A stretch of DNA of 64,000 nucleotides. Origin: Flavobacteriaceae bacterium (GTDB taxonomy: Bacteria; Bacteroidota; Bacteroidia; Flavobacteriales; Flavobacteriaceae). Made by a program: the position numbers and the translations under genes. The notes beneath the pieces are model-generated. The model did no database searches. It had not been told where the DNA came from and was given only the letters and a program-made list of their open reading frames with translations. Within the stretch, counting starts at the first letter, position 1, and every line of letters begins with the position of its first letter. The stretch lies in NCBI GenBank assembly GCA_020435965.1, contig JAGQYS010000010.1, positions 12,687-76,686 on the forward strand, in the 5' to 3' direction. This document shows, piece after piece, positions 5,977-51,593 of this stretch.

Positions 5977-5993
5977 CACAAAGAAATTACACA

Positions 5994-6197: not shown

Positions 6198-6203
6198 TTT
6201 TCA

Positions 6204-15507: not shown

Positions 15508-16287
15508 ATGGCAAAAAAGAAAGAAGTTAGTGTAGAAGAGCGTTTAAGAGCACTATATGATTTACAGTTAATTGACTCTAGAGTTGACGAAATTAGAAAT
15601 GTAAGAGGAGAACTTCCTTTAGAAGTACGTGATTTAGAAGACGAAGTCGAAGGTCTTAGCACAAGACTTCAAAAACTTAACGAAAGTCTTGCTGATATTG
15701 ACGAGCAAATCAAGTCCAAGAAAAACTTAATTGAAGAAGCTAAAGCTTTAATTAAAAAATACTCAGAACAACAAAAGAATGTTCGTAACAATAGAGAGTA
15801 CAACTCTTTAACAAAAGAAACTGAATTTCAGGAACTTGAAATTCAATTGGCTGAAAAGCACATCAAAGAATTTAAAGTTCAAATTGAGCAAAAAAACGAG
15901 ATAATTAACGAAACCAAAGAGCGTTTAAAAGAACGCCAAGACCACTTAAAACATAAAAAAAGTGAGTTAGATGCTATTTTAGCTGAGACTGAAAAAGAAG
16001 AATTAGCTCTTATAGAAAAATCTAAAGATTTTAAAGAATCAATTGAAGAGCGCTTAGTGATTGCTTATGACAGAATCAGACAAAACGTAAAAAATGGATT
16101 AGCAGTTGTAGCTATTGAAAGAGGTGCATCTGGTGGTTCATTCTTTACAATTCCTCCTCAAGTTCAAATGGAGATTGCATCTCGCAAAAAAATCATTACA
16201 GACGAGCATAGTGGTCGTATTTTAGTGGATGAAGAACTTGCCAACGAAGAAAAAGAGAAAATGGAAAAAATGTTTGCTAAATTATAA
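15508..16287 (+). CDS. Coiled-coil protein of the COG1579 type whose C-terminal zinc-ribbon cysteines are all replaced
   Basis: 259 aa; long heptad-rich region, then ...ERGASGGSFFTIPPQ...ITDEHSGRILVDEE where relatives (from memory) carry CxxC...CxxC. Starts 2 nt after the Nif3-like gene, the usual partner of this family. Confidence 0.65.
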   Translation: MAKKKEVSVEERLRALYDLQLIDSRVDEIRNVRGELPLEVRDLEDEVEGLSTRLQKLNESLADIDEQIKSKKNLIEEAKALIKKYSEQQKNVRNNREYNSLTKETEFQELEIQLAEKHIKEFKVQIEQKNEIINETKERLKERQDHLKHKKSELDAILAETEKEELALIEKSKDFKESIEERLVIAYDRIRQNVKNGLAVVAIERGASGGSFFTIPPQVQMEIASRKKIITDEHSGRILVDEELANEEKEKMEKMFAKL

Positions 16288-16307
16288 TTAGCAACACTCA
16301 ACATAGA

Positions 16308-16342
16308 AAAAAGCCTTTAACAATACGTTAAAGGCTTTTTTT
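16308..16342 (+). terminator. Rho-independent terminator
   Basis: aaaagcctttaac / gttaaaggctttt stem with a 5-nt loop, followed by a T run, 20 nt after stop 16287. Confidence 0.8.
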
Positions 16343-16393
16343 ATGTGTAATTATTTTACTTACTTAACGACAGAGTTAAAAAATTAATACTAA

Positions 16394-17074
16394 ATGAAAT
16401 CTTTAATAGTCTCCCTTTCTATTGCATTACTTTTTAGTTGTAACAATAATGCACAGCAAAAAACGGTTTCTAAAAACACTAAATCCAAAATTGAACAAGG
16501 GCTCATGGATGCTGATCCTGTTGAAGTGCCTTTACAAAATGGGAAAGCAAGAGCTTATTTTGCAAGTGGCTGTTTTTGGTGTGTTGAAGCCATTTACGAA
16601 AGTGTAAAAGGTGTTGAAGAATCTATTTCTGGTTATTCTGGAGGTCATACCTTAAACCCAACTTACGAAAGCAGTAATACAGGAAGAACAGGACATGCCG
16701 AAGCTGTTGAGATTATTTATGACCCAAAGGTGGTGAGCTTTGCTACTTTGGTCGATGTGTATTTTGGCTCACAAAATCCAGTACAGGAAAATGGGCAAGG
16801 TCCAGATATTGGCTCGCAATATCGTTCCATTATTTTCTATCAAAATGAAGAACAAAAGCAGATTATTTTGGAGAAAAAAGAAACCTTAGCCAAAAAACTC
16901 AATAAACGTATTGCTGCCGAAGTGATGCCTTTCCAGAAGTTTTGGGTTGCAGAAGATTATCACCAAGACTATGAGCGTTTACATCCTGAAAGCAGCTATA
17001 TACAACGTATATCCATACCAAGACTAAACCGTTTTAAGCAGAAATTTCCACATTTATTGAAAGAGAATCATTAA
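16394..17074 (+). CDS. msrA: Peptide-methionine (S)-S-oxide reductase, lipoprotein-type signal
   Basis: 226 aa; GCFWCVE active site, HDPT-like block (IIYDPKV...), signal ending LLFSC. Confidence 0.92.
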   Translation: MKSLIVSLSIALLFSCNNNAQQKTVSKNTKSKIEQGLMDADPVEVPLQNGKARAYFASGCFWCVEAIYESVKGVEESISGYSGGHTLNPTYESSNTGRTGHAEAVEIIYDPKVVSFATLVDVYFGSQNPVQENGQGPDIGSQYRSIIFYQNEEQKQIILEKKETLAKKLNKRIAAEVMPFQKFWVAEDYHQDYERLHPESSYIQRISIPRLNRFKQKFPHLLKENH

Positions 17075-21145: not shown

Positions 21146-21244
21146 TGTCATTCCGCACTGTCCCACTGAGCGCAGTCGAAGTGTGATGCGGAATCCATTA
21201 TAATTAAAAACTAAAAGTAGATTCCTGCCTTCGCAGGAATGACA
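21146..21244. repeat. REP/MITE-like palindromic element (TGTCATTCC...GGAATGACA termini)
   Basis: tgtcattccgca...gagcgcagtcga...tgcggaatcc...gattcctgccttcgcaggaatgaca: terminal inverted repeats plus two internal hairpins. Fills the whole kynU-kmo spacer. Confidence 0.85.
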
Positions 21245-22654: not shown

Positions 22655-23059
22655 ATGAGTGAAAAAACAGTAACACCTAGAGGCGCTTATCCACACACAA
22701 AACGTGCTGGCGATTTTATTTTTGTGTCAGGCACAAGTTCACGTCGTGCAGACAATACCATTGCAGGAGTTGATATTATTGACGAAATGGGAACAAAACG
22801 CCTGAATATTGAAGTACAAACCAGAGAAGTACTTCAAAACATAGAAAAAAACCTCATAAAAGTAGGTGCATCAATGAAAGACGTAGTTGATGTAACTTCC
22901 TTTTTAGTGAATATGAATGACTTTGCTGGCTACAATAAAGCCTATGCAGAATTTTTTAATGCCGAAACAGGACCAGCTCGAACTACTGTTGCAGTACACC
23001 AACTTCCACATCCTGATTTGGTGGTTGAAATTAAGGTAATGGCATACAAACCACAATAA
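22655..23059 (+). CDS. RidA/YjgF-family enamine/imine deaminase (candidate 2-aminomuconate deaminase)
   Basis: 134 aa; YjgF/RidA pattern ([11 protein letters not shown]...[12 protein letters not shown]...VEIKVMA). The deaminase role is inferred from context only. Confidence 0.85.
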
Positions 23060-23067
23060 AAATAGTC

Positions 23068-23142
23068 TGTCATTCCGACAGAGCGCAGCGACGAGGAATC
23101 TCATCATTGGATTTCTCAATTGTTCCTCATGTTGAAATGACA
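23068..23142. repeat. REP/MITE-like palindromic element, same family as 47715-47792
   Basis: tgtcattccgacagagcgcagcgacgaggaatctc...atttctcaattgttcctcatgttgaaatgaca; termini TGTCAT/ATGACA; shares the right half almost verbatim with the element at 47715. Confidence 0.85.
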
Positions 23143-23222
23143 ATACTTAATATTAAAATTACCTATATTTAGATAACCAACCTCAAACCAACCTTAGCTT
23201 AATCACTTTTTAATTATAAACT

Positions 23223-24005
23223 GTGATTAAATTTTTCCGTAATATTCGAAAGCAACTTCTTGGAGAAGGAAAAACTTCCAAATACTTTAAATACGCTGTT
23301 GGTGAAATACAATTAGTAGTTATAGGAATCCTTATTGCGCTTCAAATTAATAATTGGAACGAAAACAGAAAATTAGAAAGTAGCAAACACAAGCTATTGT
23401 TAGCCTTAAAAAAGGAATTGGTTAATAATAAAAATGCAATGGATGATTATCTACTTGAGATGCATAAGAGCAATGCCAAATTTAATAAAGTGCTTCTTTA
23501 TTCAGTTGGACAATATAATATCCCAACCGATAGCTTAAAATACTATCTTTCTAATATGGTCTACGGAAGAACATTATCTCTATTAAACTCAGTACAGGAA
23601 GAAGCTATTAATTCTGGTAAATTTGAACTGTTAAACGATAGCCTAAAACAAACTCTTTCTCAACTAAAAGATTATACCAATTCAAGAAATTATGTTCAAG
23701 AACAAGGTATAGATATGTATTATTTTAAAAGTGACAAACAGACAGATAAGTTAATTAATAGTTTATACATGTCTCCAGTTGTGCCTGATGAATTATCAAA
23801 TCATCCATTAATCCCTACACATCCTGATTTAATATTAAGCAATAGTGAATTATCGGTTTTACTTAAAGATGCTGATACTTATTTAACATTAAATAAAATA
23901 TACCTAACACATATAGCTGACGAAGTTTGGGTTAAACATGGTCTTTTTAGAATTACAAACAATACAATTGAATTGATTAAAAAAGAACTGAATGCTTATG
24001 ATTAA
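23223..24005 (+). CDS. MIKFF...NNWNE family single-pass membrane protein, copy 1 (unknown function)
   Basis: 260 aa; GTG start; VIKFFRNIRKQLLGEGKTSKYFKYAVGEIQLVVIGILIALQINNWNE anchor module, divergent C-terminal domain. Confidence 0.8.
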   Translation: MIKFFRNIRKQLLGEGKTSKYFKYAVGEIQLVVIGILIALQINNWNENRKLESSKHKLLLALKKELVNNKNAMDDYLLEMHKSNAKFNKVLLYSVGQYNIPTDSLKYYLSNMVYGRTLSLLNSVQEEAINSGKFELLNDSLKQTLSQLKDYTNSRNYVQEQGIDMYYFKSDKQTDKLINSLYMSPVVPDELSNHPLIPTHPDLILSNSELSVLLKDADTYLTLNKIYLTHIADEVWVKHGLFRITNNTIELIKKELNAYD

Positions 24006-24702
24006 GTTTTTTAGAAAAATACGTCACGGACTCATGAATGAAAACAAAATGGGAAAATACTTTAAATATGCTATTGGTGAGATTCTTCTGGTAGTTATAG
24101 GTATCCTCATTGCATTAGGCGTTAACAATTGGAACGAAAAAAGAAAAGAAAAAAACAAAGAAGTTGTTTACTTAAATAGGTTAATGTCCAATTTAAGTTA
24201 TGATGTGTCATTGTACAAACAAATCATGCAAAGAGATTCCTTATTATTGGAAAGCATGACAAACTTAGAGGATGGGCTCACATCTAATGTTCTTTTGGAT
24301 AAAGAAAACATAACAGAATTAGTAACTGGTTATAGATTTACTTCCAACAAAACTACTATTGACAATTTAATATCCTCTGGACAAATTGAAGTACTAAGAA
24401 GTCATTATTTAGTGGAAAAAATATTCATGTACTACAGAACTGTGGAAAACATAGATAATGGAACTGACGAGGCTATATCCAATAATAATCGAAATACATT
24501 TGGACCCTTAATAATTAATTCAGGATATTTTAAAAATTCAGAAATTGATTTATACACATTAAAAAAGGATACTTCATTATTAACATCTATACGATTTAAA
24601 AAATTTTTGCTAGATAATCAATTAAAATTATACAATGGTCAGTATCAATTAGCACAAGAGCTTATTGAAGACATTAGAAATGAACTAAATTATATAGATT
24701 AA
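23998..24702 (+). CDS. MIKFF...NNWNE family single-pass membrane protein, copy 2
   Basis: Track ORF starts at 23992 (MLM...). The family-conserved MIKFFRKIRHGL start is ATG 23998, whose ATGATTAA contains the stop (TAA 24003-24005) of copy 1. Confidence 0.8.
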   Translation: MIKFFRKIRHGLMNENKMGKYFKYAIGEILLVVIGILIALGVNNWNEKRKEKNKEVVYLNRLMSNLSYDVSLYKQIMQRDSLLLESMTNLEDGLTSNVLLDKENITELVTGYRFTSNKTTIDNLISSGQIEVLRSHYLVEKIFMYYRTVENIDNGTDEAISNNNRNTFGPLIINSGYFKNSEIDLYTLKKDTSLLTSIRFKKFLLDNQLKLYNGQYQLAQELIEDIRNELNYID

Positions 24703-25436
24703 TGATTAAATTCTTACGTCATTTCCGCAAAACACTAATCTCAGAAAACAAAATGGGTAAATACTTCAAATACGCTATTGGTGAAATTCTATTAGTAGTT
24801 ATAGGAATTCTTATTGCATTACAAATTAATAATTGGAACGAACAACGTAAAGCAGAAAAATTAGGTCAAGATTATTTAAAAGGCATTAAAAGTGACCTTA
24901 CTAAAGATTTTGTATTGCTCGACTCAATTCTAAAAGGATACAGTAATGATATTAGTCTTATTAATTCAATTGATAATGAGTTTGAAAAACCCATTTATGA
25001 AATTAACCCTAAGTATAAACAGGTCTTAATTGAACCTGACACCAGTAGAACAAAACACTTGTTTTATAGAGGGATTTCTTTTAGACCAATACAAGCAACT
25101 TATAGTTCTTTGGTGGCAGATGGTAAATCCAGTCTAATAAAAAACCGTGATCTTTTTGAAGTCATTCAAGAGATTTACGATGAACGCCACAACCGCATTG
25201 AAAGTGTTTATGAATCCTTTAAAGCTAGTGAAAATCGCATTCATTGGAACTATGCTTACGAAAAGAAAAACTGGAACTATACAGATTTATTAAACTCTAA
25301 AAACGACAAAATATTTTTAGACCTATTTAATTTCACCGAAATTAAATACTTCTATAGTCAACATTTACTAAACCTCAGAAAAAAAATGACAGAAGTTATT
25401 ACTTTAATTGATAAAGAAATAAACCAAATTAAATGA
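24702..25436 (+). CDS. MIKFF...NNWNE family single-pass membrane protein, copy 3
   Basis: 244 aa; MIKFLRHFRKTLISENKMGKYFKYAIGEILLVVIGILIALQINNWNE; TAATG overlap with copy 2. Confidence 0.8.
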   Translation: MIKFLRHFRKTLISENKMGKYFKYAIGEILLVVIGILIALQINNWNEQRKAEKLGQDYLKGIKSDLTKDFVLLDSILKGYSNDISLINSIDNEFEKPIYEINPKYKQVLIEPDTSRTKHLFYRGISFRPIQATYSSLVADGKSSLIKNRDLFEVIQEIYDERHNRIESVYESFKASENRIHWNYAYEKKNWNYTDLLNSKNDKIFLDLFNFTEIKYFYSQHLLNLRKKMTEVITLIDKEINQIK

Positions 25437-26227
25437 TTAAATTCTTCCGTCATATTAGAAAATCGTTAATCGAAAAGAACAAAATGGGAAAGTACTTTAA
25501 ATACGCTATTGGTGAAATCATTTTGGTAGTTATCGGAATTTTAATTGCCTTAGGTATTAATAACTGGAATGAAAATAGAAAACAAAAGCTTGAAGAAAAA
25601 ATTATATTAGCTCAATTACATACCGAGTTTAACAGCAACCTTAAACAATTAAATCAAAAAATTGAACTAAAAAAAGAAATCATTAATTCGGCTTTAAAAC
25701 TATTTAAATATATAGATTTTGAAGAACTTAGAAACAAAGATAGTATCGATTATTATTTAGCCAGAACCATCCCATACACAACATTCGATCCAATTGTAAA
25801 CGAAATAACACTGTCCAATCAATTAAACCTATTACAAAATGACAGTTTAAAACAAAAACTTACTTATTGGACTTCTGAATTAGCCGATAATAGAGAAGAT
25901 GAATTAACTTGGAAATACTACCGTGAAAATAAATACATTCCATTTTTAGTAGAACATTACCAACTTAGAACCATTAGAAATCTTGCCAATCAATCAAATT
26001 TATTAGAAAAATATTTAATCGAAGAAAACACTTCTAACATTGTTGCTAAAATTGGAAAATCGAAGTATGAAGAAAATTATAATACATTATTAAATCTGCC
26101 AAATTTTGAGGATCACATAGAAAGATGTGTCACACAAAATAGGCATTCGCTTAATCAATCGTTAATTTTAAGAAAAAAAATAATGCAAATTATTGGTATC
26201 TTGGATCATGAAATCAAGCATCGATAA
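25433..26227 (+). CDS. MIKFF...NNWNE family single-pass membrane protein, copy 4 (full-length paralogue of copy 8)
   Basis: 264 aa; ATGA overlap with copy 3. The C-terminal domain aligns along its whole length with the 50076-50879 product. Confidence 0.8.
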   Translation: MIKFFRHIRKSLIEKNKMGKYFKYAIGEIILVVIGILIALGINNWNENRKQKLEEKIILAQLHTEFNSNLKQLNQKIELKKEIINSALKLFKYIDFEELRNKDSIDYYLARTIPYTTFDPIVNEITLSNQLNLLQNDSLKQKLTYWTSELADNREDELTWKYYRENKYIPFLVEHYQLRTIRNLANQSNLLEKYLIEENTSNIVAKIGKSKYEENYNTLLNLPNFEDHIERCVTQNRHSLNQSLILRKKIMQIIGILDHEIKHR

Positions 26228-26234: not shown

Positions 26235-27674
26235 ATGAACATCCAAAACTATATAAACGGAAATTTCTACAACCCAATACAAGATAATTGGTTAGATAAC
26301 TACAACCCTTCAAACGGAGAAGTTTATGGCAAAATTCCTAATTCATCCAAAGAAGATGTAGAAAATGCTTACATCGCAGCAAAATCTGCTTTTCCAAGTT
26401 GGAGTCAAACCACTTTAGATGAACGCAGCAGAATCTTGCTCAAAATTTCTGAGCTCATCGAAACTAATCTTGACAGATTAGCTGAAGCAGAAAGCAAAGA
26501 CAATGGCAAACCCATTTGGCTAGCCAAAGCAGTAGATATACCAAGAGCATCTAGCAATTTTCGTTTTTTTGCTAACGCCACAACGCAATTTGCGAGTGAA
26601 AGCCACGAAAGTGTTGGTCATGATGCTATAAATTACACTCTGCGTCAACCTATTGGAGTTGTGGGCTGTATTAGCCCTTGGAACCTTCCACTCTATTTAT
26701 TTACTTGGAAAATCGCTCCAGCCATTGCAGCTGGAAACTGTGTAGTTGCCAAACCAAGTGAAGTCACACCAATGACAGCTTATTTGTTAAGCGAAATTTG
26801 CAATGAAGCAGGTTTACCAAAAGGTGTACTAAACATTGTTCATGGCTTAGGAACTACTGCAGGACAAGCTATTATAGAACATCCAGATATTAAAGCCATT
26901 TCTTTTACTGGAGGCACTGCGACTGGAGCACATATTGCTAAAGTAGCTGCACCTATGTTTAAAAAATTATCATTAGAACTAGGTGGTAAAAACCCAAACA
27001 TCATTTTTGATGATTGCGATTATGAAGATATGCTTAATACAACTATTCGCTCTTCCTTTGGTAATCAAGGTCAAATATGTTTATGTGGTAGTCGTATTTT
27101 TGTTCAAGATACTATTTACGAGCAGTTCAAAAAAGACTTTGTAAATGTAGTCAGCAAACAAAAAGTAGGTCATCCATCAGCTCGTGACACAAAAATTGGA
27201 GCCTTAGTATCAAAATCTCATCTGGAAAAAGTGTTGAGTTATGTAGATATAGCAAAAGATGAAGGTGGAAAAATATTATATGGTGGTAATCAGCTTACTA
27301 TTGAAGGTTATGAAAATGGTTATTATATGGAACCAACCATTATTGAAGTACCAACTGATGAATGTCGTGTAAACCAAGAAGAAATTTTTGGTCCAATTGT
27401 AAGTATCATGCCTTTTAAAACTGAAGATGAAGTGTTACAAATGGCAAACAAAGTGAAGTATGGATTATCAGCCACATTGTGGACGAACGATTTAAAACGA
27501 ACCATGCGCATGACCAATCAATTACAAGCAGGAATTGTTTGGGTAAACACGTGGCTAATGAGAGATTTACGTACACCTTTTGGAGGTGTAAAAGACTCTG
27601 GAGTTGGCCGTGAAGGTGGTTTTGAAGCTTTGCGCTTTTTTACAGAAGCAAAGAATGTTTGTATAAAGTATTAA
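26235..27674 (+). CDS. NAD-dependent aldehyde dehydrogenase, probable 2-aminomuconate-6-semialdehyde dehydrogenase
   Basis: Track ORF begins at 26193, but the ALDH-typical N-terminus (MNIQNYINGNF...) starts at ATG 26235. ELGGKNP and catalytic FGNQGQICLCGSR motifs. Pathway role inferred from neighbours. Confidence 0.82.
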   Translation: MNIQNYINGNFYNPIQDNWLDNYNPSNGEVYGKIPNSSKEDVENAYIAAKSAFPSWSQTTLDERSRILLKISELIETNLDRLAEAESKDNGKPIWLAKAVDIPRASSNFRFFANATTQFASESHESVGHDAINYTLRQPIGVVGCISPWNLPLYLFTWKIAPAIAAGNCVVAKPSEVTPMTAYLLSEICNEAGLPKGVLNIVHGLGTTAGQAIIEHPDIKAISFTGGTATGAHIAKVAAPMFKKLSLELGGKNPNIIFDDCDYEDMLNTTIRSSFGNQGQICLCGSRIFVQDTIYEQFKKDFVNVVSKQKVGHPSARDTKIGALVSKSHLEKVLSYVDIAKDEGGKILYGGNQLTIEGYENGYYMEPTIIEVPTDECRVNQEEIFGPIVSIMPFKTEDEVLQMANKVKYGLSATLWTNDLKRTMRMTNQLQAGIVWVNTWLMRDLRTPFGGVKDSGVGREGGFEALRFFTEAKNVCIKY

Positions 27675-30425: not shown

Positions 30426-30435
30426 TGAAAAAGAA

Positions 30436-30510
30436 TGTCACCTCGAGCGCAGTCGAGAGGTCTTTTTTATAAAATAATTTTAATAGGTCTCGACTGCGCT
30501 CGACCAGACA
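30436..30510. repeat. REP/MITE-like palindromic element with GAGCGCAGTCGAGA core
   Basis: tgtcacctcgagcgcagtcgagaggtc...(AT-rich loop)...ggtctcgactgcgctcgaccagaca: 16-nt perfect arms (tcgagcgcagtcgaga); creates the false N-terminal extension of ORF 30435. Confidence 0.85.
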
Positions 30511-30515
30511 TTGTA

Positions 30516-31160
30516 ATGCACTTTTTACCTGAAAAAATTGATGATTATGTTGTAAAACATTCTGAAGAGGAACCAGAATTATTGCAACAACTTAATAGAG
30601 AAACCTTTCAAAAGATTTTGCAACCACGAATGTTGAGTGGTCATTACCAAGGTCGTGTTTTAAGCATGATATCTAAGCTGGTTAATCCGAAACATATTCT
30701 TGAAATAGGTACTTACACAGGTTATTCAGCTATATGTTTAGCTGAAGGTATGCAAAAATCTGGAGAATTACACACTATTGATATTAATGAAGAGTTGTAC
30801 GATTTTCAACGTAAGTATTTTGATAAATTTGGTTTTGGGCAACAAATCATTCAACATCTAGGAAATGCTTTAGATATCATTCCGAAACTTGATAAGACTT
30901 TTGATCTTGTTTTTATTGATGCTGACAAAGAAAATTACTCAAACTATTTTCATGCCATCATTGACAAGATGAATACTGGAGGAATCATTCTGTCTGATAA
31001 TGTGTTATGGAGTGGAAAAGTATTGGATACAGAATTTAAAAAAGAAGACAAATCCACACCTGCTTTAATTGAGTACAATAAACTATTAAAAGCAGATAAA
31101 CGAGTTGAAACCATCATTCTACCGATTAGAGATGGGTTAACTATTTCTAGAAAATTGTAG
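30516..31160 (+). CDS. Class I SAM-dependent O-methyltransferase (caffeoyl-CoA OMT-like)
   Basis: Start moved to ATG 30516 (MHFLPEKIDDYV...). LEIGTYTGYSAICLA SAM motif and FIDADKENY motif. Confidence 0.8.
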   Translation: MHFLPEKIDDYVVKHSEEEPELLQQLNRETFQKILQPRMLSGHYQGRVLSMISKLVNPKHILEIGTYTGYSAICLAEGMQKSGELHTIDINEELYDFQRKYFDKFGFGQQIIQHLGNALDIIPKLDKTFDLVFIDADKENYSNYFHAIIDKMNTGGIILSDNVLWSGKVLDTEFKKEDKSTPALIEYNKLLKADKRVETIILPIRDGLTISRKL

Positions 31161-31486: not shown

Positions 31487-31516
31487 AAAATACCGACTTT
31501 TAAAAGTCGGTATTTT
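31487..31516 (-). terminator. Perfect palindromic hairpin terminator downstream of the M1 peptidase gene
   Basis: aaaataccgactttt / aaaagtcggtatttt, flanked by A/T runs on both sides. Confidence 0.75.
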
Positions 31517-31537
31517 AATTTTTAACTAAAAACAGTA

Positions 31538-33835
31538 TTAATTTTTACTTTTAAACTGTTCAAATTTACTTTGTTTGATTTCTTTTGGCCAAGAATTATT
31601 TGATGTATCTATATCTGCTGTTTCTAAATCTGGATCAATTTCTATAGATACAATTTCTTTTTGTGTAGCCATAGCTCTTGTAACTTGCTTATCATTATGT
31701 CTCCAAATTTGTGCAGGATATGTTATTCGTTCTTTAGAACCATCTGCATAAGTATATTCAACAATAATTGGCATTACCAAACCTCCTGGTTTTTCAAATG
31801 TTATATTGTAAAAATACTTAGGTGATTTTATGTTTTTACGTTCGGCTTCAGTGAAGTTATCCATTAAATATTCTTTTAATGTTGTTGAGTTTTCCAATGG
31901 TTCGTTATTTTTCATACTTGCCATATACTCTTCACTACCTTCTTCTACAAAATAAACCAAAGGCCCTAATTCTTCAACACTTGTTTTTCTAAAATCAGCA
32001 ATTCTTTTAGCTGCAGCGTTAGGTTGCGAAGAAACGTATAGTTTTTTTACATCTTTAAGTCCAATATCTACATAATCCGTTGTATAAAACCATCCTCTCC
32101 AAAACCAATCTAAATCCATTGCTGAGGCATCTTCCATGGTTCTGAAAAAATCCTCAGGAGTTGGGTGTTTAAATTTCCAACGGTTTGCATATTCTTTAAA
32201 CGAATAGTCAAATAAGTCTCTTCCCATAACGGTTTCACGTAAAATATTTAAAGCAGTTGCAGGCTTTGCGTAGGCATTATTACCAAATTGGTAGGTATTT
32301 AAGCCCTTACTCATAATTGGAGCAATGAAGTCTTGGTCGCCAGACATATAAGGTATAATATTCTTAGCTGGACCACGTCTTGCTGGAAACTCTGTATCTC
32401 CTTCAGCTAAAGCATCTGGGTATTTTTCTCCAAAATCTCTCTCTGCTACATATTGCACAAAAGTATTTAAACCTTCGTCCATCCATGTCCATTGACGCTC
32501 ATCACTATTAACAATCATTGGAAAGAAATTATGTCCAACTTCATGAATAATAACTCCTTGCATACCATATCTGGTTCTTGGAGGTATTGTTCCATCTTTA
32601 TTTGGACGTCCAAAATTATAGCATATCATTGGATATTCCATTCCCATTGGCGCACTTACTGAAATGGCTTTGTGGTAAGGATAATCAAAGGTCATTCTTG
32701 AATAAGAAATTAAGGTGCTAGCCACAGTTTTTGATGACCAATCGCCCCAAAGTGGATTAGCCTCTGGTGGATACATTGACACAGCCATCACATCTTTACC
32801 TCCAATTTTAACAGCCATCATATCCCAAATAAACTTTCTAGAGGATGCCCAACCAAAATCGCGTACATTTTCTGCATGTAATTTCCAAGTCTTTTTGGCA
32901 CTACTCTTTTTTTGTGAGGCTGCTTCAGCTTCTTTTTGGGTAACAATTTCAACTGGTTCATCAAATGATCTTTTTGCTTTTTCATAGCGCGCCATCATGT
33001 CTTTGGTAAAAACCTCACTCCTATTCATTAGACGTCCCGTTCCATCTAAAATATGATCGGCTGGCACTGTAATGTTCACTTCAAAATTACCGAATGGTAA
33101 CGCAAATTCATCACGACCAAAAAACTGTGCGTTTTGCCATCCTTCAACATCATTGTAAACTGCCATTCTTGGGTAGAATTGTGCCATTACATAGATTTTA
33201 TTATCTGTATCTGGGAAGTACTCAAATCCTGAACGGCCTCCTTCTTCTACATGGTTGTTGATATTGTACCACCATTGTATCTTGAATGAAAATTTATCTC
33301 CTGTATTCATTGGTTGTGGCAATTCAACTCGCATCATAGTTCCATTGATCATGTGAGATAATGGCTTACCGTTTGTATCTGTAACTTTTTCTATGTGAAA
33401 CCCTCTCTCTAAAGGATCTTTCATGTATTTTTTTACAAAATTTGAAGGGCTTTCAACAGGACTGGTAAACGTACTTTCAATTAATGGTGTTTTTGAGTCT
33501 GGAGCTCTCATGTTTTGATCTAACTGAACCCATAAAAACTTTAATTCGTCTGGTGAATTGTTTGTATAGGTTATGGTTTCGTTACCTGACAACCTGCTGT
33601 TAACGTCATCAAGTTCTATGTCCATTTTATAATCTGCTTGTTGCTGATAATATCCTGGTCCTGGTGCTCCTGAACCTGTTCTGAACATGTTTGGAGTAGC
33701 AAATTCATCGTATAATTCTTTGAATTTGTTTTCGTTTTTATGTCCTGGTTTACGTTCTGGCTGCGTTTGTTCTTGAGCAAACATTCCTATGGAAACAAAT
33801 AGAAATGAAAGACATAAGTATTTGATTTTTTTCAT
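31538..33835 (-). CDS. M1-family zinc metallopeptidase (aminopeptidase N-like), secreted
   Basis: 765 aa; signal peptide; HEVGHNFF...WMDEGLNTF (HExxH-x18-E). Confidence 0.9.
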   Translation of the reverse strand: MKKIKYLCLSFLFVSIGMFAQEQTQPERKPGHKNENKFKELYDEFATPNMFRTGSGAPGPGYYQQQADYKMDIELDDVNSRLSGNETITYTNNSPDELKFLWVQLDQNMRAPDSKTPLIESTFTSPVESPSNFVKKYMKDPLERGFHIEKVTDTNGKPLSHMINGTMMRVELPQPMNTGDKFSFKIQWWYNINNHVEEGGRSGFEYFPDTDNKIYVMAQFYPRMAVYNDVEGWQNAQFFGRDEFALPFGNFEVNITVPADHILDGTGRLMNRSEVFTKDMMARYEKAKRSFDEPVEIVTQKEAEAASQKKSSAKKTWKLHAENVRDFGWASSRKFIWDMMAVKIGGKDVMAVSMYPPEANPLWGDWSSKTVASTLISYSRMTFDYPYHKAISVSAPMGMEYPMICYNFGRPNKDGTIPPRTRYGMQGVIIHEVGHNFFPMIVNSDERQWTWMDEGLNTFVQYVAERDFGEKYPDALAEGDTEFPARRGPAKNIIPYMSGDQDFIAPIMSKGLNTYQFGNNAYAKPATALNILRETVMGRDLFDYSFKEYANRWKFKHPTPEDFFRTMEDASAMDLDWFWRGWFYTTDYVDIGLKDVKKLYVSSQPNAAAKRIADFRKTSVEELGPLVYFVEEGSEEYMASMKNNEPLENSTTLKEYLMDNFTEAERKNIKSPKYFYNITFEKPGGLVMPIIVEYTYADGSKERITYPAQIWRHNDKQVTRAMATQKEIVSIEIDPDLETADIDTSNNSWPKEIKQSKFEQFKSKN

Positions 33836-33873
33836 AATTAAGTGGTAGTTGATAATTGTATTAAAAGTTTTTG

Positions 33874-34377
33874 TTAATCAAAATGTAATTCGGCTTTATT
33901 GTTCTGTGAGGTTAATAGGTGGCTTTTATGTTTGTTTTTAATTTTGGTTTTAATAATATTTTGTTGCTCACTGAAAACATCAAAAAATAAGTTGTTTATT
34001 ATTTCAAAGTCGTTAATATCTGTAACATTATTTATTTCTAAATAACAATAAACAATATCGTTTTCGTATTCTTTGCCTAAAAACTTAAAATTTGTTGGCT
34101 TATTATCAATTTTGATTTCAACTTTATTGGTAAGATACTTATTAATGTAGTCGTCTATTTTGTCTTCATTTTTTGATACATCAAGTGTTATTGATTCGTC
34201 ATATCTTTTTCGTAACAATGTTTCAAAATCATCAATAAAAATACGCATTATGATTTGCACAGACTCTTTACTTTCAACGTATTCTATTTGTGTAACACTA
34301 ACGTAATATTTGTGCGCAACTGTGAACGACAGTAACGGAATTAGTACGGCGACAAACAGTATTTTAATTGATTTCAT
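33874..34377 (-). CDS. Secreted hypothetical protein
   Basis: 167 aa; signal/TM (ILFVAVLIPLLSFTVA); no motif recognised; upstream in the same operon-like string as the M1 peptidase. Confidence 0.4.
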   Translation of the reverse strand: MKSIKILFVAVLIPLLSFTVAHKYYVSVTQIEYVESKESVQIIMRIFIDDFETLLRKRYDESITLDVSKNEDKIDDYINKYLTNKVEIKIDNKPTNFKFLGKEYENDIVYCYLEINNVTDINDFEIINNLFFDVFSEQQNIIKTKIKNKHKSHLLTSQNNKAELHFD

Positions 34378-34446
34378 AAATAATGACTACTGAGGTATAC
34401 AAATTTATTAATTTGTAATCTGAATTACTATTTATTTAAGATAAAA

Positions 34447-46155: not shown

Positions 46156-46938
46156 ATGATTAAATTTTTTCGTCGTATTAGACAACGATTGGTTTCTGAA
46201 AGCAAATTTTCTAAATACATATTATACGCCATTGGTGAAATTATTCTCGTAGTTATCGGAATTCTTTTAGCGCTTCAAATAAATAACTGGAATCAACAAC
46301 GAATTGAAGACAAAAAAGAGATAGAACTACTTATCGATCTAAAAGATGAATTTAAAAATAATTTAACCGAATTGGAAGAGTCTATTAACATCAATAAAAA
46401 AGTTACTCAATCCTGCGTTGACCTTACCAATATTATCAGGTCAAATTCATTATCCAAAAAACCTGATGTTGTAGATAAACTATTGATCTCAATTGGCAAT
46501 TTTAATTCTTTTGATGCCAAAACTGGAGTTTCAAGCGAAATAGTTAACTCTGGCAAATTGAGCATTTTAAAAAACGAAGCCCTAAGAATACAATTAAACA
46601 ATTGGTTAACCATAATTATTGACTCTGAAGAAGATATTCTTTTTAGGTCAGACAACTACACGATTAGCCTAATGCCTTTTTTGATGAAGCGGTTTCCGCT
46701 CGCAAATGGAGAGCTTACCAAAAAACTACCTTTTGATAGGAACAACAAATTGCAAACATACCAAGAAAAATCGCCTTTTGAAGCTGATTTAAACCAAGAG
46801 GATTTAATGGAATTTGAAAATCAGATCTGGCACCATAAACATAATCAAGATTATGTTGCTATCAACGAACTAAACCTAAAGGATTTTATTCTGGCCACAA
46901 TTGGTATGATTGAAAACGAGTTAAACAAAAAGTTATAA
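46156..46938 (+). CDS. MIKFF...NNWNE family single-pass membrane protein, copy 5
   Basis: 260 aa; MIKFFRRIRQRLVSESKFSKYILYAIGEIILVVIGILLALQINNWNQ. Confidence 0.8.
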   Translation: MIKFFRRIRQRLVSESKFSKYILYAIGEIILVVIGILLALQINNWNQQRIEDKKEIELLIDLKDEFKNNLTELEESININKKVTQSCVDLTNIIRSNSLSKKPDVVDKLLISIGNFNSFDAKTGVSSEIVNSGKLSILKNEALRIQLNNWLTIIIDSEEDILFRSDNYTISLMPFLMKRFPLANGELTKKLPFDRNNKLQTYQEKSPFEADLNQEDLMEFENQIWHHKHNQDYVAINELNLKDFILATIGMIENELNKKL

Positions 46939-47679
46939 ATGATTAAATTCTTTAGAAAAATACGCTACAACCTCATGGAAACAGGAAAAACTGGTAAATA
47001 CCTAAAATATGCCATTGGCGAAATTATTCTCGTAATGATTGGTATTCTTTTAGCACTACAAGTAAACAATTGGAATCAAGATCGATTAAACACTATCGAA
47101 AAAAAGGAGTTGCTCTCAAAACTACACTTTGAGTTTAAATCCAATAAAAAAGCTATTGAAACTTTTAGAATTGCTGAAGACAAAGCCATGAGTTCAAGTA
47201 TTGAATTAATCAATCTTGTTGGAGCTACTAAACAAGAGTTATCTAAACATAATCTCGATAGCTTATTTTTTGAATCTTTTCCTGCAAATGAATTGGCTTT
47301 TGCTAATAATGCTGTAAACGATATAGTACAAAATGGACATCTTAATCTTTTTAAAGACGAAGAAATTACAACATTGTTGTACCAATGGAATTCGCTTTCC
47401 GAGATTAGAAAAACCCGATTCGAAAAACTGGATTTATGGAACAACGAGCAGTTTATCCCCTTTTTATTGCCTTTTATTTCAATGAGGGAAATGGACAAAT
47501 ATTCCAATTACAAATGGACTGGAAAATCTAAAGTAAAGCCAGATTATTACCCTTTGTTCCAGAAAGTTGAATTTGAAAACCTATTGGACAATTCTTTATG
47601 GTTACATCAACAGATTGTTGAGAGGCTTAATGAAACTGAAAAACTGATTGATGAGATAATCAATGCCACAAAACCTTAA
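46939..47679 (+). CDS. MIKFF...NNWNE family single-pass membrane protein, copy 6
   Basis: 246 aa; ATG immediately follows the copy-5 stop (TAAATG); N-terminal 46 aa are identical to copy 7 except for 1 residue. Confidence 0.8.
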   Translation: MIKFFRKIRYNLMETGKTGKYLKYAIGEIILVMIGILLALQVNNWNQDRLNTIEKKELLSKLHFEFKSNKKAIETFRIAEDKAMSSSIELINLVGATKQELSKHNLDSLFFESFPANELAFANNAVNDIVQNGHLNLFKDEEITTLLYQWNSLSEIRKTRFEKLDLWNNEQFIPFLLPFISMREMDKYSNYKWTGKSKVKPDYYPLFQKVEFENLLDNSLWLHQQIVERLNETEKLIDEIINATKP

Positions 47680-47685
47680 CTATTT

Positions 47686-47714
47686 ATGATTAAATTCTTT
47701 AGAAACATATCAAC
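47686..47714 (+). pseudogene. Orphan 5' stub of a MIKFF-family gene, truncated at the MITE-like element
   Basis: atgattaaattctttagaaac (MIKFFRN) is identical to the copy-6 start for 20 nt, then runs straight into the repeat at 47715. Confidence 0.6.
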
Positions 47715-47792
47715 TGTCATGTTGAGCGCAGTCGAGACATCTCATTATGAGATTTCTCAATCGTCACTTCGTTTCCTCATGTCGAAATGACA
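47715..47792. repeat. REP/MITE-like palindromic element, same family as 23068-23142
   Basis: tgtcatgttgagcgcagtcgagacatctcattatgagatttctcaatcgtcacttcgtttcctcatgtcgaaatgaca. Confidence 0.85.
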
Positions 47793-47798
47793 AACAAA

Positions 47799-48518
47799 AT
47801 GATAAAGTTCTTTAGAAAAATACGATACAACCTTATGGAAACAGGAAAAACTGGTAAATACCTAAAATATGCCATTGGCGAAATTATTCTCGTAATGATT
47901 GGTATTCTTTTAGCACTACAAGTAAGCAATTGGAATGAAAAACGCAAAGACAGGATAAAAGAGCAATCCGTTTTATCATCAATCAATAAAGAATTTAAAA
48001 TGAACAAAATTCAATTTGATTCTGTTTTATACTTTCATAAAAAGGCTTATAATGGCTGCAACAAATTGATTGCAATGTTTCCCATTGATATTGAAAGGGA
48101 TAATTTAGATACCATTTCAAAGCACCTTTGGGATGCTGCATATAATTGGACGTTTAACCCTTCACAAGGAACTATAAACAGCATTATAAATACATCATCT
48201 TTTGATATTATAAGCAATGATGAGCTTAGAGGTTTGCTGGTATCTTGGTCAGACATCGTTTTGGATTTACAAGAAGATGAAATTCAGAATAAGAAAGTAG
48301 TATTTGAGCAGATGGATCCTTTTTTTGCAGGAAACATTGACTATAATTTTAATTTAAAAGACAAGCGAAATAATTTAAACGTACTAGAATCCATTAAATT
48401 TGAATATCTCATTAGGTTAAGGCAAGCTCTTCTTTGGGAACTTTTTAAACCAGGAGCAGAAATTGAAGTTTTAGAGAAAAACCTAGAAAGAATTATTGAA
48501 CTTACATCAGAAAAATAG
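47799..48518 (+). CDS. MIKFF...NNWNE family single-pass membrane protein, copy 7
   Basis: Track ORF begins at 47787 inside the repeat terminus (MTNK); the family start MIKFFRKIRYNL is ATG 47799. Confidence 0.8.
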   Translation: MIKFFRKIRYNLMETGKTGKYLKYAIGEIILVMIGILLALQVSNWNEKRKDRIKEQSVLSSINKEFKMNKIQFDSVLYFHKKAYNGCNKLIAMFPIDIERDNLDTISKHLWDAAYNWTFNPSQGTINSIINTSSFDIISNDELRGLLVSWSDIVLDLQEDEIQNKKVVFEQMDPFFAGNIDYNFNLKDKRNNLNVLESIKFEYLIRLRQALLWELFKPGAEIEVLEKNLERIIELTSEK

Positions 48519-48538
48519 AAACTCTTAAACCAACACAC

Positions 48539-49966
48539 ATGAAAAAAGCTTTAAAACTATTAGGAATACTAATACTCATCGTTTTAGCTGTCTTAATTTT
48601 TAATACCTTAAGACTAAGCTCAAAACAAGTAGCTCCACAAGCCTTAGAAAGTGTCAACCTACCAAGTGATGCCTTTCACAACCTTTCAAAAGCCATACAA
48701 TTTCCAACCGTTTCTTTCAGTGAAGATGCCATTCCAGACTCAACAGCATTTTTTGGTTTTCACAGATTTCTTGAAGAAACCTTTCCGTTAACACATACTA
48801 ATTTATCTCTAGAAAAAATAAACGATTACAGTTTACTCTATAAATGGGAAGGTTCAGACGCTTCAAAAAAACCTATTATCTTAATGTCACATCAAGACGT
48901 AGTTCCTGTTGATGAGCCAACTTTAAACGATTGGGAAGCCGAGCCGTTTTCAGGTAAGATTACTGACACGCATATTATTGGTCGTGGCACAATGGACGAT
49001 AAAGGTACATTGATAGGATTATTAGAGGCTGTGGAAAAATTACTCGAAGAAGGTTTTGTACCAACTCGAACCATTTATCTTGCTTCTGGACACGATGAAG
49101 AAGTTGGTGGAAGCAATGGTGCTGCTGCCATCGCAGCACATTTAAAAGCAAAAGGAATACATGCAGCCATGACACTCGATGAAGGTGGTTTTATTGCTGA
49201 AGATTTAGTTCCAGGAGTAAATAATCCTGTTGCTATGATTAATCTATCCGAAAAAGGTTTTGCTTCATTTAGGTTGATTGTAGAAACCACTGGAGGACAC
49301 AGCTCGCAACCTCCACGCGAAAATACCATTGGCATGTTGGCACAAGCCATTGTAGATTTAGAAAACAATCAGTTACCTTACAAATTGGTTAATCCTGTTG
49401 ATTACCAATTAGAATATATGGGAGCTGAACTACCCTTTTTTCAAAAAATGGCTTTTGCCAATCCTTGGTTGTTTAAAAAACCAATATTGGAAGCTTTAAA
49501 TGCGCATACCACGACTGCTCCAACCATAATTGATGGAGGAGTGAAAAACAATGTGATTCCAACAGTTGCTGAAGCAACCATTAATTTTAGAATTCTACCT
49601 GGTGAAACCATAGAATCTACACAGCAACATATTGAAGCTGCCATTTCAGATAAAATAAGAGTAGAACCTGTTGGTTTTTTAACCAATCCATCTCCTGTTT
49701 CAAGTATCGATTCTGAAGCTTTTAAAATATTAGAACAAACCATTCGTGATATGTTTCCAACAAGTATTGTTGTTCCAGGTTTAGTTGGTGGTGGCACTGA
49801 TGCCAGATATTTTTATGACATTTCAGATGATGTGTATCGTTTTTACCCTATTCGTATCGGTCCAGACAGCATGACCAGATTTCATGGTATTGACGAAAAA
49901 ATAAGTAAAGACAATTACAAAGAGATTATTGAATTTGCCTACCATTTAATAAAAAAGTTTAATTAA
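48539..49966 (+). CDS. M20/M25/M40-family metallopeptidase with N-terminal membrane anchor
   Basis: 475 aa; TM (LLGILILIVLAVLIF); SHQDVVPV, GRGTMDDKG, GHDEEVGG metal-binding blocks. Confidence 0.85.
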   Translation: MKKALKLLGILILIVLAVLIFNTLRLSSKQVAPQALESVNLPSDAFHNLSKAIQFPTVSFSEDAIPDSTAFFGFHRFLEETFPLTHTNLSLEKINDYSLLYKWEGSDASKKPIILMSHQDVVPVDEPTLNDWEAEPFSGKITDTHIIGRGTMDDKGTLIGLLEAVEKLLEEGFVPTRTIYLASGHDEEVGGSNGAAAIAAHLKAKGIHAAMTLDEGGFIAEDLVPGVNNPVAMINLSEKGFASFRLIVETTGGHSSQPPRENTIGMLAQAIVDLENNQLPYKLVNPVDYQLEYMGAELPFFQKMAFANPWLFKKPILEALNAHTTTAPTIIDGGVKNNVIPTVAEATINFRILPGETIESTQQHIEAAISDKIRVEPVGFLTNPSPVSSIDSEAFKILEQTIRDMFPTSIVVPGLVGGGTDARYFYDISDDVYRFYPIRIGPDSMTRFHGIDEKISKDNYKEIIEFAYHLIKKFN

Positions 49967-49983
49967 TGATAAAGTTTTTTAGA
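49966..49983 (+). pseudogene. Orphan 5' stub of a MIKFF-family gene overlapping the M20 stop (TAATG)
   Basis: atgataaagttttttaga = MIKFFR, then unrelated sequence and a stop after 33 codons. Confidence 0.55.
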
Positions 49984-50075
49984 TTATCGAAACAAAATTT
50001 TGCTACTGCAAAATCAAATGTCCAATGGACATTTGGTGGAGATAGCCGCTTGCGGAAAAAATAGAAACTAAAAGT

Positions 50076-50879
50076 ATGATAAAATTCTTCAGAAAAATAA
50101 GATACAATCTTATGGAAACTGGTAAAACTTCAAAATATTTAAAGTATGCTATTGGCGAAATTATTCTTGTAGTTATTGGTATCCTCATTGCTTTAAGCAT
50201 TAATAATTGGAATGAGTCAAGGAAAGAAGCTATTCAAGAAACTGCAATACTAAACCAATTACATATTGAATTTAGAAGCAATTTAAGACAATTGGATGAA
50301 AAAATTGATTTGAAAAAGGAAGCGATAAATTCATCATTACAGCTATTTAAATATATTGATTTTCAAAATCTTCGAAATAAAGATAGCGTTGATTATCATT
50401 TAGCAAGGACATTGCCATTTTCTACATTTGACCCAATAGTAAATGACTTGGCTAGTTCAGGAGAATTAAGAATGATAAAAAACGATAGTTTAAAACAAAA
50501 GCTCTCTTTTTGGACGTCTGAAGTAAAGGATTTACGAGAAGAAGAGGTGGCTTGGCAAGAGCATAGAAATAATAAATATGAACCTTTCCTTATTAAGCAT
50601 TATCAACTAAGAACCATTAGAAATATCGCCAATAAAACGAACGTTTTAGGAAAATATTTAATTGAAGACAAGTCGACCATCATGAAACCTGTAATTGGTG
50701 TCACTAAACATCCTGAAAATTTTAACCTATTGTTGAATCACCCAGACTTTGAAGATCATATAGAAAGGTGCTTAACAAAAAATAATCATGCGCTTAACCA
50801 AGCTTCTATTTTGAGAAAAAGATTAATAGAAATATTAGACATATTAAATTCTGAATTAAAGAATACAAACAATGATTAA
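50076..50879 (+). CDS. MIKFF...NNWNE family single-pass membrane protein, copy 8 (paralogue of copy 4)
   Basis: 267 aa; MIKFFRKIRYNLMETGKTSKYLKYAIGEIILVVIGILIALSINNWNE; the C-terminal domain aligns along its whole length with copy 4. Confidence 0.8.
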   Translation: MIKFFRKIRYNLMETGKTSKYLKYAIGEIILVVIGILIALSINNWNESRKEAIQETAILNQLHIEFRSNLRQLDEKIDLKKEAINSSLQLFKYIDFQNLRNKDSVDYHLARTLPFSTFDPIVNDLASSGELRMIKNDSLKQKLSFWTSEVKDLREEEVAWQEHRNNKYEPFLIKHYQLRTIRNIANKTNVLGKYLIEDKSTIMKPVIGVTKHPENFNLLLNHPDFEDHIERCLTKNNHALNQASILRKRLIEILDILNSELKNTNND

Positions 50880-51593
50880 ATTCTTTCGTCATATTCGTAA
50901 ATCACTCCTTATGGAAAACAAAACAGGAAAGTACTTTAAATACGCTATTGGCGAAATTGTACTCGTTGTAATTGGTATTCTTATTGCTTTAAGCATTAAT
51001 AATTGGAATGAAAAACGAAAAACAGAAGAAAAAAAACCCATAGGTTTTTATTAGGCTTAAAAGCCGATTTACAAAACGATTTAGAAGCCATCAATTTTGT
51101 GATTGATATCCAAAATTCACGATTTAATGCTATTAAAGATTTAATTGATTTTAGCAACTCGCCAAATGTAAAAACCATCATTGAAAATGACTCCATGAAA
51201 GCATCACAAGGTGGTAGGAATTTTACTTTTTTTCCTGTTGTTGGTTCGTATAAAGCAGCCAGCAATACAGGATTAATTGATAATATAAAAGATGAACAAC
51301 TCAAAAACAATATTTTAAACTTATATGAACATTTATATGTAAGAATAAATTATAATGGAGAAATTAATGATAATAGATACGAAATGGTTGATTGGGAAAG
51401 CAGGAACTATATTGATTATACAAAAAAGGAACTTGTGTTTGATAAGCGTGGACTGCTCGATAAGGATTTCGTGAATCAATTAGGCTTTTTAAATAGATTT
51501 GTAAGAGTATATATTGGACGATGTGATGACACAAAATTAGCGATAGAAACAACCTTAAAGGAAATAAACAATTATTTAATGGTTTATGATTAA
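50872..51593 (+). pseudogene. MIKFF-family copy 9, split by a frameshift at an A8 tract
   Basis: ORF 50872-51054 carries the anchor module and stops 6 codons after A8 (51029-51036). Frame 0 is open from 51012 and continues as ...HRFLLGLKADLQNDLEAINFVIDIQNSRFN... into ORF 51099-51593, matching the juxtamembrane pattern of copy 3 (YLKGIKSDLTKD). One extra A or two fewer As would restore about 241 aa. Confidence 0.75.

Follow-up and report, generated by a model that had tools for sequence, protein, structure and literature searches.

An insertion hotspot in a flavobacterial kynurenine cluster holds turnover-prone arrays of DUF6090 proteins with a constant anchor and subfamily-specific, putatively periplasmic domains

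Why should a kynurenine gene cluster carry in its midst four paralogous genes for membrane proteins that are nearly invariant at the N-terminus and hardly alignable over the rest of their length? The question is raised by a 64,000-nucleotide (nt) window, the whole stretch of DNA analysed here (Flavobacteriaceae bacterium, assembly GCA_020435965.1, contig JAGQYS010000010.1, positions 12,687 to 76,686 of the forward strand), in which an array of four genes of family DUF6090 (A1 to A4) occupies positions 23223–26227. We saw that this array is a lineage-specific insertion at the junction of a RidA-family gene and an aldehyde dehydrogenase (ALDH) gene, that the junction is an insertion hotspot, and that in the arrays whole genes are gained, lost or replaced, the pool of old subfamilies behind them being very large. 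As to function, the explanation of the whole that we hold with moderate confidence, judging from sequence, is that the proteins would be constant anchors, docking or oligomerising in the membrane and bearing subfamily-specific periplasmic recognition domains.

The array is flanked upstream by genes for kynureninase, kynurenine 3-monooxygenase and the RidA-family protein, and downstream by those for ALDH (closest model, 2-hydroxymuconic semialdehyde dehydrogenase, TIGR03216), SDR, 3-hydroxyanthranilate dioxygenase and an ACMSD-type amidohydrolase. We surveyed the RidA|ALDH slot in 80 metagenome contigs encoding a close relative of the RidA-like protein (86–98% identity). In ∼27 related contigs just 3–94 nt separate the RidA-like gene from ALDH, with nothing else between them, which bears out a preliminary description of this DNA in which the array was proposed to be wedged into an otherwise coherent cluster. 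Eight contigs carry a single DUF6090 gene in the slot, of differing subfamilies. In other contigs the slot contains 3, 4, 8, ≥10 or ≥11 copies, and Winogradskyella flava has ∼15–17. The junction is thus a natural experiment, with related genomes holding 0, 1, 4, 8 or >10 copies at one place; it also lets one test how well a catabolic operon tolerates 1–12 kb inserted between its cistrons.

The most telling relative is contig L029, with flanks 85–88% identical to the window at the DNA level. L029 carries four copies at this position as well, none orthologous to A1–A4. When the two arrays were compared only the ∼150-nt 5′ modules could be aligned (70–83%), and the DNA of the C-terminal domains (C-domains) had no detectable similarity. 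Across 24 slot-bearing contigs, 87 family members fell into 62 clusters at ≥50% C-domain identity, 46 of them singletons. The slot is open to other genes too: (i) an exported M20 peptidase of a second type, (ii) a GH3 gene, (iii) a polytopic membrane protein and (iv) several further unrelated genes were observed there in other contigs. An in-frame MIKFFRQIRKSLLMEN stub precedes the GH3 gene.

The turnover does not reflect diversification in place, as the preliminary description had supposed in calling the domains diversified, for each of A1–A4 has full-length orthologues elsewhere at 48–74% identity. The C-domain of A1 has an orthologue 67% identical in Microcosmobacter (L005:9218-9991); A2 has orthologues at 74, 67 and 63%, followed by ∼50% in Aquimarina, Robiginitalea and Melioribacteraceae; A3 has C-domain orthologues at 48% in Microcosmobacter (L005) and in L066; and A4 has >100 full-length relatives at 50–71% identity across many genera of Flavobacteriaceae. 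Within the A4 subfamily the mean pairwise identity of C-domains is 57%, and many polar residues are invariant. Family-wide, just 9% of C-domain pairs are detectable by BLAST, and 118 members form 86 clusters at ≥35% identity. The C-domains are old, individually conserved subfamilies, and what turns over is their occupancy of the slot.

Two faster modes of change found no support. Strain-level hypervariation was rejected, as four metagenome contigs of the window's own population were 99.8–100% identical across the array, with a run of Ns as the sole apparent difference; change is therefore not rapid within the population. Nor do the C-domains look like targets of a diversity-generating retroelement, since they lack detectable DNA similarity and differ over the whole domain.

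The window itself displays the contrast between constant and variable parts clearly. Pairwise identity among A1–A4 is 74–84% in residues 1–50, whereas it is 22–25% in the remainder, so that the near-invariant N-terminal module and barely alignable rest described earlier are both real; the four same-strand open reading frames (ORFs), with the overlaps reported for them, are real as well. A second group of family copies, B1–B5, lies further downstream (46156–51593). For the eight intact copies of the window the corresponding ranges are 64–92 and 18–28%, the exception being A4 and its paralogue B4, with C-domains 59–60% identical. A six-frame search of all 64 kb with a hidden Markov model (HMM) of the anchor detected complete modules at nine places and short stubs at two, with no further match. 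The earlier count of nine copies and three stubs covering about 10 percent of the DNA was right in extent (∼10.8%, stubs included) and in part in number: eight copies are intact, the ninth (B5) is broken and the stubs are two. Restoring one A to the run in B5 yields a 240-amino acid (aa) protein scoring 96.9 bits against PF19578 (model positions 1–174 of 182), the top score among the window copies; the B5 frameshift could be a pseudogene mutation, a slip-strand on/off switch or an assembly error.

The tentative assignment to DUF6090 in the preliminary description proved correct. The gathering cut-off of PF19578 is 23.5 bits, and A1–A4 all pass it, as do B1, B3, B4 and the repaired B5; B2 falls just under (Table 1). 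The window copies share the family's length (∼235–265 aa) and N-terminal membrane helix and do not differ from it in kind. However, the Pfam model begins at E28, thus omitting a conserved cytoplasmic leader of 27 residues, and it covers diverged C-domains only partly.

What is constant in the anchor became apparent from an alignment of 176 members. Eight residues are 100% invariant (Y21, Y24, G27, E28, L31, G35, I36 and A39), and a further 11 are ≥97% conserved (F5, R6, R9, A25, I29, V32, L37, L40, N43, W45 and N46). In the C-domain, the hydrophobic core, E55, D101 and a turn motif, S-G-x-L-x-x-I-x-N-x-x-L-x-x-x-L-x-x-(W/Y), alone survive family-wide. The turn motif, noticed before in the four array genes, is genuine: the frequencies of its main residues are S.49, G.75, I.56, N.64, L.77 and L.53, and the position after the consensus is hydrophobic in 96% of members. 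No catalytic-type or conserved polar residue cluster common to the whole family was seen in the C-domain of this alignment. The C-domains, barely alignable as they are, are nevertheless homologous, since alignment of two subfamily profiles by hhalign gave a probability of 100% and E = 1e-44 over 179 columns. Residues 7–23 of the leader occur in a few discrete types (HIRKSLxxxNKMGKYF, KIRYNLMETGKTxKYL, KIRQxLLSENKFSKYLL and LFRNIRKNLLxEGKTxKYF), and the type tends to be common to neighbours within one array.

The orientation with the N-terminus inside and the C-terminus outside (N-in/C-out), predicted at the outset, finds its support in the bias of charge, with a mean net value of +5.8 over residues 1–27 vs +1.0 over residues 45–64. 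AlphaFold models built from alignments of orthologues were obtained for A4 (predicted local distance difference test, pLDDT, 84; predicted TM-score, pTM, 0.70) and for A2 (pLDDT 89; pTM 0.76). The two proteins are ∼22% identical, and their models show an identical layout of helices: a basic amphipathic helix at residues 2–14, a continuous helix 18–95 made of the membrane span and a stalk, a helix at ∼136–175 and a long C-terminal helix. One face of the transmembrane helix (E28, L31, G35, I36, A39) is invariant family-wide; the helix extends into the stalk of ∼50 residues, against which the two further long helices pack in the predicted bundle. The models indicate that DUF6090 proteins have the architecture of an elongated three-helix bundle on a membrane stalk with one transmembrane helix, and the division into a constant anchor and variable domains was upheld both by the invariance of the anchor and by the same layout in two copies.

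Fold comparison did not connect the bundle to a known function. Foldseek searches of the PDB and BFVD with the A2 and A4 models produced nothing at E ≤ 0.001, and in Pfam and fold searches the variable domains matched no characterised enzyme or transport family. The weak matches were generic elongated helical bundles (best E = 0.01–0.05; TM-score ≤0.33 for natural proteins), among them the sensor domains of TorS and McpS, three-helix surface receptors of trypanosomes and Borrelia, and designed bundles. The trypanosome haptoglobin–haemoglobin receptor and VSG, as well as Borrelia PFam12, are like DUF6090 in being membrane-attached elongated three-helix bundles with many paralogues; unlike it, they are surface proteins of eukaryotes or spirochaetes with other anchors, so that the analogy is one of scaffold use and the matches are non-significant.

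The arrays are built tightly. In ∼50 loci with family members all 136 neighbouring pairs of family genes were on the same strand; 60 of the 136 overlapped (32 by 8 nt, 19 by 4 nt and 9 by 1 nt) and 39 more were 0–20 nt apart. The tight packing noted in the window was borne out. The 4- and 8-nt overlaps arise because the conserved start, ATGAT(T/A)AAA, holds TGA and TAA in its other two frames. Between the stop of A4 and the likely ALDH start (ATG at 26235) there are 7 nt, and within the array the + strand showed nothing resembling a terminator; read-through transcription from the array into ALDH is therefore likely. Upstream of A1, B1, B4 and ALDH the exact Bacteroidetes -7 promoter motif (TAnnTTTG) was not found, near-matches only being present.

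The 5′ modules of different copies are 60–79% identical in nucleotide sequence (median ∼68%), with exact runs of ∼13 nt; about 15 of 48 codons per pair differ synonymously only, and synonymous sites are heavily diverged. The module is therefore kept by selection at the protein level, and gene conversion at the DNA level was rejected as the cause of its constancy, a recent tract being present in B2/B3 alone. There, ∼135 nt are nearly identical between sharp borders (91-nt exact run, 93% module identity). B4 has the leader type of its neighbours, and its C-domain orthologue A4 bears an A-type leader. The tract and the mosaic leader indicate that neighbouring copies swap their 5′ modules from time to time; the 5′ stubs look like scars of such exchange events.

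Table 1. Coordinates of the DUF6090 copies, of the genes and repeat bordering them in the window, and of related genes in other loci (L numbers)
Feature	Location	Strand	Remarks
RidA-family gene, upstream slot border	22655..23059	+	Rid family match
∼85-nt dispersed intergenic repeat, copy in RidA–A1 spacer	23063..23145	+	aligns with 47706-47792
A1, DUF6090 copy	23223..24005	+	260 aa, GTG start; PF19578 30 bits
A2, DUF6090 copy	23998..24702	+	234 aa; 8-nt overlap with A1; PF19578 47.9 bits
A3, DUF6090 copy	24702..25436	+	244 aa; 1-nt overlap with A2; PF19578 48.9 bits (model positions 1-143 of 182)
A4, DUF6090 copy	25433..26227	+	264 aa; 4-nt overlap with A3; PF19578 41.8 bits
ALDH, downstream slot border	26235..27674	+	NCBIfam TIGR03216 E = 4e-169, below curated cut-off
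B1, DUF6090 copy	46156..46938	+	260 aa; PF19578 46.6 bits
B2, DUF6090 copy	46939..47679	+	246 aa; PF19578 21.0 bits (just <23.5 cut-off); anchor HMM E = 2e-33
5′ stub (MIKFFRN...)	47686..47790	+	anchor HMM positions 1-21; dispersed repeat after it
B3, DUF6090 copy	47799..48518	+	239 aa; PF19578 32.5 bits; first ∼135 nt nearly identical to B2
M20 family peptidase with N-terminal signal anchor, inside second array	48539..49966	+	Pfam Peptidase_M20 + M20_dimer; NCBIfam M20 family peptidase
5′ stub (MIKFFR...)	49966..50064	+	1-nt overlap with M20 stop; anchor HMM positions 1-12
B4, DUF6090 copy, A4 paralogue	50076..50879	+	267 aa; PF19578 46.9 bits
B5, DUF6090 copy split by frameshift	50872..51593	+	A8 run at 51029-51036 one base short
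Exported RidA-family genes	L003:852-1301, 8363-8881; L004:8155-8685; L012:13765-14313; L023:1682-2062		
∼350-aa DUF6090 variants	L002:4230-5282; L005:4944-5987, 11558-12613, 15557-16609; L008:4025-5074, 5853-6914; L014:5189-6256		

What could such proteins do? The combination is unusual: an anchor invariant across phyla, bundles that are specific to subfamilies and putatively periplasmic, and wholesale replacement of the repertoire between genomes with flanks as similar as those of L029 and the window. It points to a conserved membrane interaction. We suggest that DUF6090 proteins are type-II bitopic inner-membrane proteins, N-in/C-out, rather than enzymes; that a common membrane component, encoded outside the arrays, is what the constant anchor docks to or forms oligomers with; and that the bundles, in the periplasm, differ in the ligand or protein they recognise. 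On this view an array would supply a collection of recognition or adaptor modules tethered to the membrane, their expression linked by translational coupling. It would have no specific role in tryptophan catabolism, probably riding on the operon transcript, for whose read-through it may be needed. The helical-bundle sensor domains of TorS, McpS (HBM) and 4HB_MCP/Tar offer a parallel: these too are elongated periplasmic bundles continuous with a transmembrane helix and diverse between paralogues, with recognition surfaces specific to each paralogue. Unlike them, DUF6090 proteins have neither a second transmembrane helix nor a cytoplasmic transmitter or signalling domain, and end in the bundle; no Pfam match to 4HB_MCP, TarH, HBM or TorS-type sensors was found, and Foldseek gave E = 0.14 for TorS and 0.5 for McpS with TM-score ≤0.32.

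Several observations weigh against this proposal. The recognition and docking mechanism is drawn entirely from patterns of conservation, and the sensor-like resemblance of the fold lacks statistical support. No common neighbour that could serve as a conserved partner gene turned up in >20 contexts from Bacteroidota, Proteobacteria and Ignavibacteriota. Genes for peptidases and hydrolases are frequent neighbours, which might mean a more specific role; such genes are also abundant in these genomes. Finally, the high turnover of the repertoire, the low G+C content of the array (27.5–29.7% vs ∼35–37% in the flanks), the pseudogenes and the stubs would fit a function in biological conflict equally well.

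The last point leads to the main rival, in which the proteins would be membrane-tethered periplasmic immunity or exclusion proteins, each neutralising a different incoming toxin (for example, a contact-dependent or type VI effector that acts in the periplasm) or stopping a different phage at the inner membrane; in an array such defences would have accumulated into a repertoire. The replacement seen between close relatives, a copy number of 0 to ∼17 in one hotspot slot, the low G+C with the frameshifted copy and the stubs, and a patchy distribution across phyla with orthologues of Flavobacteriaceae and Melioribacteraceae 52% identical would all be expected of such a repertoire. Indeed, DUF6090 arrays resemble islands of orphan immunity genes and arrays of integron cassettes in being same-strand, packed hotspot arrays whose genes are rapidly gained, lost and replaced from one close relative to the next. 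Unlike those, however, every gene of the arrays is of one family, with no toxin, recombinase or integrase nearby: no toxin-type domain was seen next to family copies in ∼50 loci or annotated contexts, the adjacent gene in the 136 neighbour pairs being another family member, and no integrase or recombinase was seen in the examined contexts. PADLOC models gave no match below E = 0.07, and tblastn against phage and plasmid collections and IMG/VR detected no family copies. Moreover, the subfamilies are conserved across genera at ordinary rates, unlike arms-race genes, and an immunity role leaves the invariant cytoplasmic helix and anchor unexplained. On balance we consider the defence repertoire unlikely. 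One could speculate further that DUF6090 arrays form a repertoire system of a cassette-like kind, not recognised before, in marine Bacteroidota and certain Proteobacteria. The anchor would plug interchangeable three-helix-bundle recognition heads into one shared inner-membrane machine, with reshuffling between close relatives at hotspots through the 5′ module; we think this quite unlikely, and if true it would mean a bacterial receptor or immunity repertoire working in the periplasm. An integron or invertible-promoter architecture was rejected: most spacings are -8 to +20 nt, leaving no room for attC-like sites, and the sole repeated DNA in the array is the 179-nt coding 5′ module.

Other explanations start from the anchor, from the location or from the DNA. 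If the anchor inserted into a proton-driven complex of the ExbB/TolQ/MotA type, as the anchors of TonB, TolA and ExbD do, the bundles could couple energy to different periplasmic or outer-membrane targets. The predicted N-in single span with a short basic tail, the acidic E28 where the transmembrane helix meets the cytoplasm, the small residues G35 and A39 on its invariant face and the periplasmic extension are all in keeping with TonB, TolA, ExbD and MotB; arrays without a dedicated partner fit a shared housekeeping machine, and since a single motor, encoded at another place, serves the TonB paralogues, reliance on such a remote motor is compatible with the lack of ExbB, TolQ or MotA genes in the examined neighbourhoods, a lack which still counts against such coupling. 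We regard motor coupling as improbable, because the likeness lies in features general to many membrane anchors, the periplasmic domain is unrelated, and no profile match to ExbD, TolR, MotB, TonB or TolA was found (Pfam and NCBIfam at E ≤ 1, PDB profiles at E ≤ 10). That the array is a largely dispensable, self-propagating expansion, its 5′ module promoting duplication and recombination with little benefit to the host, would agree with the stubs, the frameshifted copy, the extreme variation in copy number and the exchange of modules; it is decidedly improbable given the diverged module DNA described above, with conservation at the protein level, and the retention within subfamilies, across genera, of full-length ORFs and many invariant polar residues. 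The place of the array invites the idea that it serves the kynurenine cluster and works with the M20 peptidase, for example in sensing, helping to take up or scaffolding tryptophan metabolites or peptides: it is embedded in the operon close to ALDH, several relatives use the same slot, and M20 peptidases recur there. Yet many relatives have an intact cluster and an empty slot (the ∼27 contigs above), which makes a direct role in tryptophan catabolism unlikely; most arrays are located elsewhere, in unrelated contexts, and the slot occupants are non-orthologous between relatives and include GH3 and other unrelated genes. A service to the pathway is thus very improbable. Least credible is a pilin-like role, in which the N-terminus would be a class III (prepilin-type) signal and the processed proteins would build a fibre or pseudopilus whose heads vary. 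Type IV pilins and pseudopilins do share with DUF6090 a conserved N-terminal module (basic leader, invariant Gly-Glu, a hydrophobic helix with a composition like that of pilin alpha1-N), variable C-terminal domains and tandem genes, the last typical of minor pilins, and among named bacterial proteins in the PDB the anchor profile matched type IV pilins alone, without significance (E = 0.1). But N_methyl (PF07963) and TIGR02532 gave no match at E ≤ 1; the G(-1)/F(+1)/E(+5) register is missing, since the consensus K23-Y24-A-I-G27-E28 has K rather than G at -1 for E(+5) and the PDB alignment is two residues off; the long leader of 27 residues is highly conserved, unlike prepilin leaders; the head is all-helical in both AlphaFold models rather than alpha/beta; and no genes of pilus machinery are nearby.

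What the preliminary description called the second locus of the window is not independent of the first, because in relatives the RidA|ALDH slot is where its M20 peptidase and B-type copies are found. M20 proteins 84–90% identical to that of the window are located inside the slot arrays of L034, L044, L045 and L075, and L032 and L033 have the same M20 gene at ∼80–82% DNA identity. The B2 C-domain has orthologues in the slot at 69% (L075) and 57% (L062), B3 has one at 52%, and the C-domain of B4 is 67% identical to that of L034:5339-6130, also within the slot. In the genome of the window this M20/B-type part is placed 20 kb downstream of the A array.

DUF6090 is among the larger wholly uncharacterised membrane-protein families of marine Bacteroidota. 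A search of 1.84 billion representative proteins returned 18 996 representative clusters (counted at 50% identity) at E ≤ 1e-3 and 11 911 at E ≤ 1e-10. The family is not confined to Bacteroidota, as had been believed: homologues were found in an isolate genome of Kordiimonas lipolytica, in Woeseiaceae and other Gammaproteobacteria, in Lysobacterales, in Nitrospina metagenome-assembled genomes and in Melioribacteraceae; the protein of locus L109 scores 25.9 bits against PF19578. A query of the Kordiimonas type led to a same-strand array of at least 14 genes of ∼235–262 aa (L110:4688-14714; GCA_964486635.1). As almost none of these genes reach the Pfam threshold, the catalogued family under-counts its diverged branches. 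Searches of NCBIfam, PADLOC and PDB sequences and profiles with family members revealed no characterised relative, and Pfam gave DUF6090 alone; in the searchable library no paper on the family was found. Variants of ∼350 aa have an extra beta-rich C-terminal domain of ∼100 aa; the one from Algoriphagus gives a weak, sub-threshold match to SusF_SusE (E = 0.048), and the others match nothing.

Among the genes near family arrays several kinds were considered as general partners and rejected. RidA-family proteins with lipoprotein signal peptides, and thus exported, are encoded beside or inside DUF6090 arrays in several unrelated loci (Table 1); they are limited to L003, L004, L012 and L023. In Algoriphagus kandeliae (L014:710-19889) runs of DUF6090 genes are interleaved with three Reg_prop/Y_Y_Y sensor histidine kinases, with overlapping start and stop codons, and a kinase of this type also adjoins an array at L004:4965-8003; no other locus had it. 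MBOAT (one syntenic group), PagP/PagL (two contexts), a TRAP transporter (one) and various peptidases were not general either.

Some minor features of the slot and its surroundings deserve mention. At L048:3705-6065 the GH3 gene is beta-glucosidase-like, and its ORF opens with a DUF6090 stub, MDMIKFFRQIRKSLLMEN, followed by a lipoprotein-type signal; the junction is an apparent scar of a replaced family gene. In L077, L100, L104 and L075 the slot is taken by the exported peptidase of the second M20 type, which has ∼500 aa. Downstream of the kynurenine cluster, the genes for an M1 peptidase and a DUF6702 protein (window ∼31500–34400) are absent from the otherwise collinear L029, which suggests further flexible segments around the cluster.

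The spacer between the RidA-family gene and A1 contains a copy of an ∼85-nt dispersed repeat with the core GAGCGCAG(T/C)CGAG ... TCATGT(T/C)GAAATGACAA; the second copy comes right after the stub between B2 and B3. The repeat was rejected as a cause of the hotspot, being missing from the slot border in most relatives. Related cores are present at 21168-21181 and 30445-30501. The latter, an inverted repeat pair, is read as the first ∼25 codons of a methyltransferase ORF (30435-31160); as relatives align only from residue 26, the true start of this gene is probably near 30510.

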